A DNA stretch of 32,000 nt from Candidatus Baldrarchaeota archaeon. GTDB lineage: Archaea > Asgardarchaeota > Baldrarchaeia > Baldrarchaeales > DXJG01. Positions 3,572 to 5,295 of the stretch are shown here, piece by piece; positions within the stretch are counted from its first letter, which is position 1; each line of letters begins with the position of its first letter. The notes under the pieces are model-generated. The model was not told the origin of the DNA and ran no database searches. It saw only the letters and a list, made by a program, of their open reading frames with translations. The stretch spans positions 403,103 to 435,102 of the forward strand of contig DXJG01000002.1 of NCBI GenBank assembly GCA_019056805.1, given 5' to 3'. A program made the translations under genes and the position numbers.

Positions 3572-4417
3572 ATGGAGGAAGGAAAAACAACCAATAAACA
3601 TCATAGACCGACAGTTCAAGAAATTTTAATTGAAAAACTCAAAGAGCACGTATCAAAAAGTGAAAAATGCAGAAAGGCTCTAGAAATTCTATTGAATGAT
3701 GGAGAGGTAAATGCTTTACTTGAAGCAGTAAACATAGCAGCAGTAGGAAGATTGAGATACAATGATCACGGCAAAACCCATAGCATAATCACAAGTCTAA
3801 ATGCTTTAAAAATCCTAGATCTCCTGTACGAGGCTGATATACAACCAAACACGGTAAAAGAGAAAAGCGGCGACATAGATGACGCAAGAGTAACAGTATT
3901 ATTAGCAGCCTATCTTCATGACTTGGGACATATAATACATAGAGAACGCCACTATCAGTTTTCTTTATGGATAGCAAAACCAATAATCGAAAGAATACTA
4001 AAAGAAATATACGGTGAAAACATTAGAAAACGAATCCAAATCTTAGCAAATACACTTCATGCAATTTATGCACATGATAAAGATGTAGTGGCATTAACAG
4101 TGGAAGCAGGAATAATTGGAGTTGCAGATGCAACAGACATGGCAAAAGGGAGAGCAAGAATACCTTTCGCACTCGGAGAAGTAAGCATACACAGCATATC
4201 AGCATTAGCAATAGATTACGTAGAAATAAAAAAGGGAAAGGAAAAACCAGTAAGAATAGAAGTACATATGAGCAACAGCAGCGGCATATTCCAAATACAA
4301 GAACTACTACAGAAAAAACTCAAAGCATCAAACCTAGATCCATACATCGAAGTAGTAGCAAAAATAAAACCAGAAGAACGAAGAATACTAAGAGAAACAG
4401 AAATAAGAATCGTATAG
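3572..4417 (+). CDS. HD-domain metal-dependent phosphohydrolase (COG3294-like)
   Basis: YNDHGKTHS, AYLHDLGH, HAIYAHD and VADATDMAKGRAR motifs; GGTGA SD upstream. Confidence 0.88.
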   Translation: MEEGKTTNKHHRPTVQEILIEKLKEHVSKSEKCRKALEILLNDGEVNALLEAVNIAAVGRLRYNDHGKTHSIITSLNALKILDLLYEADIQPNTVKEKSGDIDDARVTVLLAAYLHDLGHIIHRERHYQFSLWIAKPIIERILKEIYGENIRKRIQILANTLHAIYAHDKDVVALTVEAGIIGVADATDMAKGRARIPFALGEVSIHSISALAIDYVEIKKGKEKPVRIEVHMSNSSGIFQIQELLQKKLKASNLDPYIEVVAKIKPEERRILRETEIRIV

Positions 4418-4434
4418 TCACGAGAAATTAAAGG

Positions 4435-4491
4435 GGTCAGGAAAGCCAGGGCTCATCACATAGATCACAGTCGGTAGTCCTCTCATCATCC
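4435..4491 (-). ncRNA. Box C/D guide sRNA (2'-O-methylation guide), predicted dual target in 16S rRNA helix 24
   Basis: Minus strand reads GG-ATGATGA(C, 4489-4483)-GAGGACTACCGACT-GTGA(D'?)-TCTAT-GTGATGA(C', 4459-4453)-GCCCTGGCTTTC(12 nt)-CTGA(D, 4440-4437)-CC; intergenic; guides are complementary to the conserved archaeal 16S segments GAAAGCCAGGG and GGUAGUCCU. Confidence 0.85.
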
Positions 4492-4596
4492 AAACCAGAT
4501 ATATCTGTAATTCCTTTATCAACCTATCCTCATAGAGCTAAAAGCCTAAAAAATAAAATTTAACAAATTTCTCTTTCCAAAGGATGGTTACACAAT

Positions 4597-5295
4597 ATGA
4601 ACAAAGATTACACAAATGAAATACTAGAATTAGCTCTCTCACTTGGAGCTGCTCTCGCAGGCGTAGCAGACTTAAAATTATTGGAAAAACTCAAAACACA
4701 TCCACCAGACCTATTTAAAAACTTTAAATACGCCATATCAGTAGCAGTTTCATTACCTAGAAATGTCTTTGAACTAATAACCAGAGAAAGTCCAGGAGAG
4801 CTATATGCCCATGCTTATAAAACAGCAAATATACTCCTAGACCAATTAACCTTTCAAATTTCCGAAAAAATAACCGAATACGGATACAAAGCTCAACCCA
4901 TACCCGCTTCCATGATAGTAGACAGAAACAGCCTCATGGGACATGCTCCACATAAAGCATTTGCAAGAGCTGCAGGACTCGGCTGGATAGGAAAAAATCT
5001 ACTTCTAATCACACCCAAATATGGCCCCAGAATACGTCTTGCAACAATTCTAACAGATATACTTCTAAAACCTGGAAAACCGATCAAAAATCAATGTGGA
5101 AATTGCACTAAATGTATAGAAGCTTGTCCATCTGGAGCACTTAAACCCTCAAACTTCGAAGAATATCCAGCAAGAAGAGAAGATGCATTTGATGCTGAAA
5201 AATGCTATACTAGACTAAAAAAGATTAGCAGATTACCAAACATTGGAGCAGAAATTTGTGGTATGTGTATTAAAGTTTGCCCCATAGGTAAATAA
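4597..5295 (+). CDS. Epoxyqueuosine reductase (QueG)-like / reductive dehalogenase-type cobalamin Fe-S protein (COG1600)
   Basis: HKAFARAAGLGWIGKNLLLITPKYGPRIRLATILTD corrinoid-binding segment; CGNCTKCIEACP and CGMCIKVCP Fe-S motifs. Confidence 0.8.
   Translation: MNKDYTNEILELALSLGAALAGVADLKLLEKLKTHPPDLFKNFKYAISVAVSLPRNVFELITRESPGELYAHAYKTANILLDQLTFQISEKITEYGYKAQPIPASMIVDRNSLMGHAPHKAFARAAGLGWIGKNLLLITPKYGPRIRLATILTDILLKPGKPIKNQCGNCTKCIEACPSGALKPSNFEEYPARREDAFDAEKCYTRLKKISRLPNIGAEICGMCIKVCPIGK

Follow-up and report, generated by a model that had tools for sequence, protein, structure and literature searches.

The window, by which is meant the whole 32,000-nt stretch of a Candidatus Baldrarchaeota genome that was analyzed, contains a 179-nt spacer between two protein-coding genes of the plus strand, one for an HD-domain protein and one for a 4Fe-4S dicluster protein. 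A predicted box C/D sRNA lies within this spacer, in antisense orientation relative to both genes, with its 3′ end 18 nt from the stop codon of the HD gene. The original prediction had placed it between an HD gene and a QueG-like gene, a location that the Pfam assignments (HD and Fer4_16) confirm. Local G+C content peaks at 0.50 at the sRNA, as compared with 0.23-0.37 in the flanks. Standard annotation misses C/D sRNA genes, and this locus is unannotated. The features of the locus, by position in the window, are as follows:

3572-4417, plus strand: HD-domain protein gene, the convergent neighbor (Pfam HD, E 3e-6)
4435-4491, minus strand: whole predicted box C/D sRNA, 57 nt, 51% G+C against 35% G+C for the genome
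4435-4436, minus strand: 3′ CC, partner of the 5′ GG
4437-4440, minus strand: D box CUGA, read from the sequence
4441-4452, minus strand: D guide GCCCUGGCUUUC, 12 nt; +5 base C4445, predicted partner G769 of 16S rRNA
4453-4459, minus strand: C′ box GUGAUGA, with a perfect UGAUGA at 4453-4458
4460-4466, minus strand: D′-C′ loop GAUCUAU, 7 nt, the most poorly conserved of all parts
4467-4470, minus strand: degenerate D′ box CUGU, exactly 12 nt past the C box
4471-4482, minus strand: D′ guide GAGGACUACCGA, 12 nt; +5 base A4475, predicted partner U801 of 16S rRNA
4483-4489, minus strand: C box AUGAUGA, which fits RUGAUGA
4490-4491, minus strand: 5′ GG, forming a 2-bp terminal stem with the 3′ CC (4435-4436)
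4515-4522, minus strand: candidate TATA-like element TTGATAAA, centered ~27 nt upstream of G4491; a putative promoter
4597-5295, plus strand: 4Fe-4S dicluster (Fer4_16/Fer4_7) protein gene, the divergent neighbor (Pfam Fer4_16, E 3e-10)

All of the parts that had been claimed for the element, namely the C box AUGAUGA, the C′ box GUGAUGA, the D box CUGA, the 12-nt D guide, and the GG/CC pair, were read at 4491-4435 of the minus strand. With 57 nt in all and two spacers of 12 nt, the element has the dimensions usual for archaeal box C/D sRNAs (~50-60 nt, with guides of ~12 nt). The fold of the sRNA itself is not stable (z 0.54), as would be expected of an RNA whose guides need to remain open. 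In two congeneric genomes (G001 and G003), TTAATAAG stands upstream of the sRNA at a distance similar to that of the TATA-like TTGATAAA; this offers only a hint that the sRNA may have a promoter of its own. A second A/T-rich element, at window positions 4545-4565 (minus strand TTTTATTTTTTAGG), is also conserved with G001 and G003. Located 55-65 nt upstream of the sRNA and ~45 nt before the Fer4 ATG at 4597, it more probably represents the TATA box of that divergent gene.

The strict layout pattern (RTGATGA-N24-40-TGATGA-N11-13-CTGA) was searched across the whole 1.92-Mb genome and found to match once, at the sRNA site, with ~0.047 matches expected from the genome's own motif frequencies. A mismatch-tolerant scan for all four boxes returned three elements with two or fewer mismatches in the genome and none in a reversed-genome decoy. 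Among the 18 TGATGA-N11-13-CTGA modules present genome-wide, the D guide described here has the best rRNA complementarity, with 11 contiguous Watson-Crick pairs, and the best rRNA match of the six decoy modules from the reversed genome comprises 8 pairs. Searches with Rfam at gathering thresholds gave no match in the window or in four metagenome loci. At relaxed thresholds, more than 12 archaeal C/D families (snoPyro_CD RF00095, sR5 RF01304, and others) aligned end to end on 4434-4493, their boxes and spacing matching over the full length; the best scores were 18.9 bits for snoPyro_CD (threshold 45) and E 0.027 for sR5. These families are defined by their guides, and the sRNA, scoring 8-19 bits against gathering values of 36-55, is a member of none. 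Scores of this kind are expected because archaeal C/D models are specific to their guides. The covariance-model check put forward in the original prediction thus gave end-to-end alignment at scores below gathering.

A metagenome scan and comparison with related genomes revealed homologs of the sRNA in the congeners G001 and G003 and on four metagenome contigs. In these, the sRNA is convergent with the same HD gene, the product of which shares 84% identity with that of the host in G001, G003, and metagenome contig L105. The latter represents a further distinct lineage, with an HD neighbor of 281 aa. The closest relatives of the HD protein, at 84% identity, come from MAGs labeled Candidatus Baldrarchaeota (Yap30.bin4.67) and "Odinarchaeota" AUK032, which their coordinates identify as the same-genus genomes G001 and G003; the host accordingly belongs to the Baldrarchaeia among the Asgard archaea. 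No copy of the sRNA was found in G002 (82% complete).

Conservation was counted over five genus-level sequences, including the host genome. The C, D′, C′, and D boxes are unvarying across all five, save for the first base of C′ (G or A); the C box AUGAUGA is also unvarying in five sRNAs from two other Asgard families (described below), and the D box CUGA is so in every homolog, those families included. Eleven of the 12 D′ guide positions are unvarying; the D guide differs between members of the genus only at its two ends and by a single C-to-U substitution, which retains a G-U pair. In the D′-C′ loop, by comparison, two of seven positions are unvarying (five of the seven differ between the host and G001), and the flanks of the sRNA are mostly unalignable. 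The retention of boxes and guides while loop and flanks diverged indicates that selection acts on the former, and the loop appears typical of a non-functional linker. At the termini, the GG is unvarying in all relatives, as is the first 3′ C, while the second C varies. The terminal pairing of the host sRNA consists of GG/CC only; G001 and G003 have weak or wobble pairs, and L105 has an additional distal 4-bp GGUA/UACC pairing. Judged by its sequence features taken together, the element is very probably a real C/D sRNA.

L7Ae, Nop5, and fibrillarin assemble on the box motifs of such RNAs, and the nucleotide paired with the guide receives a 2′-O-methyl group. Genes for all three proteins were identified in the host: the Nop5 and fibrillarin genes are adjacent (G000:C9:90344-91832) and located on the same contig as the window, and two L7Ae-family genes are present (C10:38007-38285 and C9:24771-25043). 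The corresponding profile scores in the host are 335.6 bits for PF01269, 259.2 bits for PF01798, and 109 bits for PF01248 (L7Ae). No SSU or LSU rRNA was found in the host assembly, and no 16S gene was found in three congeners. Contigs from four DNA runs containing the host genome, when compared with the partial 16S gene of G004, yielded short mixed unitigs from many organisms, none of which could be assigned. A search for RNA sequencing runs that contain the locus returned none. Guide-target pairing was scored against the 16S rRNAs of Asgard relatives.

In the 16S rRNAs of four Asgard genomes (G010, G020, G024, and G028), GAAAGCCAGGG pairs with the D guide over 11 contiguous Watson-Crick positions, with C-G at +5; the 11-bp duplex predicted at G769 was thus recovered in relatives of the host. 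The +5 base, C4445, stands opposite the final G of GAAAG, which is E. coli G769 when counted from the standard 785F/805R primer positions; the numbers 799-807 also hold by this count. G004 alone among same-order genomes has a partial 16S sequence; there, the targets read GAAAGCCGGGG and GGUAGUCCC, so that one D-guide pair is replaced by G-U (10 Watson-Crick pairs plus one G-U), and the D′ duplex, meeting C807, is reduced to 8 pairs. Both helix 24 (h24) strings quoted originally, GAAAGCCAGGGG and GGGUAGUCCUGGC, occur in the 16S rRNAs of G010, G020, G024, and G028 as well as in that of M. maripaludis (alignment in PMC4644070). It is very likely that the D guide is directed at the G769 equivalent, where 2′-O-methylation is predicted.

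For the D′ guide, the match in the 16S rRNAs of G010, G020, G024, and others is AGGACUACC with GGUAGUCCU (799-807), a run of nine Watson-Crick pairs with A-U at +5. The 9-bp match foreseen at 799-807 therefore exists in Asgard relatives. By our own arithmetic, a 9-bp match would arise by chance in ~9 kb of rRNA with a probability of roughly 0.1 and is thus not rare, as compared with ~0.003 for a 9-mer match within 100 nt on either side of the D target. The D′ and D targets lie 32 nt apart, on opposite strands of the h24 hairpin. The two D′ guide bases adjoining the D′ box are unpaired with the relatives' 16S rRNAs.

The D′ box had been described as ambiguous between GUGA, CUGU, and CCGA. The choice could be narrowed in favor of CUGU, and with it of U801, by the register kept within the genus and in other families. 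GUGA, read two bases later than CUGU, was rejected, since it exists in the host genome only and the congeners read CUGUAC. CUGU, which matches CUGA at three of four positions, is favored because it stands at an exact 12-nt register and is unvarying in the genus; at that register, related sRNAs of two further Asgard families show GNGA. To our knowledge, the spacers of archaeal sRNAs are near-universally 12 ± 1 nt. A CUGU box at the 12-nt register brings U801 to +5. The final A, absent in all five genus-level sequences, is the A of the sheared G-A pair, and because the box lacks it, the prediction that the D′ guide targets the U801 equivalent is made with only moderate confidence.

Related sRNAs were also detected outside the genus. 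A pattern search for a C box followed by GGACUAC in 400 Asgard genomes returned many chance matches; of the 44 matches to TGATGA-N1-4-GGACTAC inspected outside the genus, only five (G300 and G303-G306) show the arrangement of a C/D sRNA. The match in G004 resembles coding sequence, and no boxes accompany the BLAST matches that the D-guide end gave elsewhere among Asgard genomes (L020, L022, L023, and L027); these candidates were discarded. The five sRNAs (L087-L091, on G300:C115, G303:C14, G304:C36, G305:C151, and G306:C6, respectively) belong to two other Asgard families and have in common with the host sRNA the C-box/D′ half, AUGAUGA-N-AGGACUAC. Their D′ boxes read GCGA, GUGA, or GAGA, stand exactly 12 nt past the C box, and place U801 at +5. 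The guide reads ...ACG in these sRNAs, as opposed to ...ACC in the host sRNA, which faces G799 of most Asgard 16S rRNAs. The 16S rRNA of G301, a congener of G303-G306 (four of the five carriers), reads CCCCCGUAGUCC with C799. Guide and target thus change together at position 799, in a compensatory manner.

Although their 5′ half is the same as that of the host sRNA, the D guide of these five sRNAs aims at ~816-826 (U820) rather than at G769. This guide, GCGGGCAUCGU, matches ACGAUGCCCGC of the G301 16S rRNA at 11 of 11 positions (~816-826, with U820 at +5), a sequence that is absent from nine other Asgard 16S genes inspected. The C-box/D′ half may conceivably be an old Asgard module, present in at least three families and joined by recombination to a G769 D guide in Baldrarchaeia and to a U820 D guide elsewhere, although we consider this rather doubtful. 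If true, 2′-O-methylation of the 3′ strand of h24, beside the E-site/790 loop, would be a conserved Asgard trait, and the sRNAs would exemplify the shuffling of guide modules in the archaea most closely related to eukaryotes, whose snoRNPs also modify h24.

The nearest known counterpart comes from Methanopyrus kandleri, in which sR60, a box C/D sRNA verified by RNA-seq, carries GCCCUGGCUUUA as its D guide (PMC4644070, Additional file 1); the label K60 appears twice in the h24-containing block of the published 16S methylation map (PMC4644070). The D guide of sR60 is the same as that of the host sRNA at 11 of 12 positions and has the same predicted G769-equivalent site. When we paired its D′ guide, GCAGCCGGAACA, with h24, the match fell on the 3′ strand (~806-813, with C806 at +5), which would make sR60 a both-strand double guide as well. 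Hence, the arrangement in which one sRNA pairs with both strands of h24 already has a published counterpart. The two sRNAs differ in their boxes, those of sR60 being GAUGACGA, with the CCGA typical of M. kandleri, and in the D′ guide, which in sR60 lies ~5 nt further 3′ (C806 versus U801 for the host sRNA). Moreover, M. kandleri is a euryarchaeal hyperthermophile, whereas the host is an Asgard archaeon. The host sRNA is very probably genuine, but it is a guide RNA of an ordinary archaeal C/D type, and M. kandleri has a near-twin of it.

Several other readings of the locus were weighed. Were the element not an RNA gene but a chance cluster of motifs in an intergenic spacer, Rfam scores under threshold would be unsurprising; such a cluster is, however, expected only ~0.05 times per genome, before the 11-bp rRNA match is counted, and it would not account for box- and guide-specific conservation across diverged relatives, so that we regard this reading as exceedingly improbable. 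That the element is a real C/D sRNA directed at other RNAs (tRNA, 23S rRNA, or mRNA), matching 16S rRNA by coincidence, would be compatible with the absence of the host 16S gene from the assembly and with two further perfect genomic complements of the 10-nt D core. These two complements nevertheless fall within the ~3.7 expected by chance. For the D and D′ guides, respectively, the best pairing with tRNAs amounts to 8 and 6 Watson-Crick pairs, and that with same-genus 23S rRNA does not exceed 9 and 7. In addition, both guides land within 32 nt of each other in 16S rRNA, and the same targets are seen for M. kandleri and two other Asgard families. Targets other than 16S rRNA are thus quite improbable.

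The other two readings concern the C′/D′ half. The sRNA could methylate through its D guide only (at G769), with the C′/D′ half binding the 3′ strand of h24 with weak or no activity and the D′ guide adding just binding energy or a chaperone effect. This reading is unlikely overall. In its favor, none of the five genus-level sequences has a terminal A in the D′ box, the duplex has 9 bp only, and two guide bases by D′ are unpaired; double guides of which one side pairs but is predicted to be non-methylating have also been described by Dennis et al. (PMC4644070). Against it, many active archaeal sRNAs have a degenerate D′ box, and the sRNAs of the other Asgard families hold U801 at +5 with proper GNGA boxes. 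The 11 unvarying D′ guide positions and the unvarying CUGU, beside a diverged loop, likewise speak for selection on this half, without indicating its purpose. If CCGA (4474-4471) served as the D′ box instead, the second site would become the C805 equivalent; CCGA retains the GA dinucleotide, is unvarying in the genus, and is the usual D/D′ variant of M. kandleri sRNAs. It would, however, leave just 7 pairs, and the equivalent bases in other Asgard sRNAs are not NNGA (ACGG in G303) even though the 12-nt register is kept. An 8-nt spacer also falls outside the general 12 ± 1 nt, and both spacers here are 12 nt; a CCGA box is accordingly very improbable. Overall, the element is probably an independently transcribed ~57-nt archaeal box C/D sRNA, with its D guide predicted to act on G769 and its D′ guide, through CUGU, on U801.

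For this dual-guide sRNA, the following course may be proposed. L7Ae would bind the C/D K-turn and the C′/D′ K-loop, after which Nop5 and fibrillarin would join. Each 12-nt spacer would then pair with nascent 16S rRNA, the D guide on the 5′ strand of h24 (E. coli 765-775) and the D′ guide on the 3′ strand (799-807), and fibrillarin would 2′-O-methylate the nucleotide opposite the fifth guide base upstream of box D or D′, i.e., the equivalents of G769 and U801, respectively. Transcription, RNP assembly, and methylation are steps that we infer, as is the sequence of the host's own 16S rRNA. The original claim of a dual guide to both strands of h24 agrees with the layout, the conservation, the protein genes, and the pairing. 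The further claim that the two targets pair with each other in mature rRNA holds for 772-775 with 804-807, but they are mutual partners over only ~4 bp. Because the targets are partly partners in mature h24, the sRNP would have to act before h24 closes; since the bound sRNP would hold the two strands of h24 apart, it may also order the folding of this helix, which is speculative.

With predicted target sites 32 nt apart, the host sRNA falls under the "double guide" definition of Dennis et al. (2015), who counted 262 of 489 archaeal sRNAs as double guides with both sites within 100 nt (PMC4644070). Other sRNAs with guides to opposite strands of one helix are known from Nanoarchaeum equitans, in which sR17 and sR15 target h28 and h30 (PMC4644070; PMC7994747). 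A role as RNA chaperones for opposite-strand guides was proposed on the basis of these two sRNAs, and the chaperone idea is thus already published (PMC4644070; PMC7994747). The targets of sR17 and sR15 (A915/U1371 and G930/G1218) are hundreds of nucleotides apart, as opposed to 32 nt across a hairpin for the host sRNA, which, unlike them, falls into the commoner class with sites within 100 nt. In yeast, guide-directed modification of h24 is carried out with snR79 (18S Cm1007) and snR31 (Psi999) (PMC2794176). These act on the same helix as the host sRNA, beside the E-site/790 loop. Yeast Cm1007 was set aside as the counterpart of either host site because, by our count along the h24 sequence, it probably corresponds to about E. 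coli C796 and not to 801 or 769.

The locus does not change the understanding of how C/D sRNAs work. It does provide two testable sites in a functionally important helix. The preferred reading expects GAAAGCC(A/G)GGG at 765-775 and GGUAGUCC at 799-806 in the 16S rRNA of the genus, for which an A772-U807 pair is also predicted. In the literature searched, no paper describing C/D sRNAs in Asgard archaea was found.

Two additional C/D sRNA candidates were noted in the same genome. One (G000:C9:293925-293990, minus strand) lies ~109 kb before the window; its four boxes are perfect and its spacers measure 12 nt. The D′ guide of this sRNA, UACUGACCUGAA, forms 10 Watson-Crick pairs with CAGGUCAGUA in the G004 16S rRNA, and its D guide, UAUGCACCUCUA, forms 9 Watson-Crick and 2 G-U pairs with GGAGGUGCAU in the same molecule. 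By our own numbering, these targets are near E. coli 1197 and 1050, on the two strands of helix 34, so that this would be another sRNA with guides to both strands of one helix. The other candidate (G000:C17:103750-103810, minus strand) has the boxes AUGAUGA, CUGA, UGAUUG, and CUGA and is preceded, at a distance of ~30 nt, by a TTTATATA element. The D′ guide of this candidate, CUGGCGACGACU, forms 9 Watson-Crick pairs and 1 G-U pair with same-genus 23S rRNA and 9 contiguous Watson-Crick pairs with the G004 16S rRNA. Together with the locus described here, these sRNAs lead to the prediction, made from sequence, that Baldrarchaeia use ordinary RNA-guided rRNA methylation.

Some rRNA genes encountered during the comparison are unusually long. 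The same-genus 23S gene L056 (G003:C116:68-3699) spans 3.63 kb for 2,987 model positions, as compared with ~3.06-3.4 kb in other Asgard relatives, which suggests that it carries expansion segments or an insertion; no 16S gene was found within the 347 nt upstream of it on this 4-kb contig. Among 16S genes, the matches at G015:C1:448464-450889 and G027:C1:440-2273 span 2.4 kb and 1.8 kb, respectively, for a model of 1,478 positions, suggesting introns or insertions in both SSU genes.
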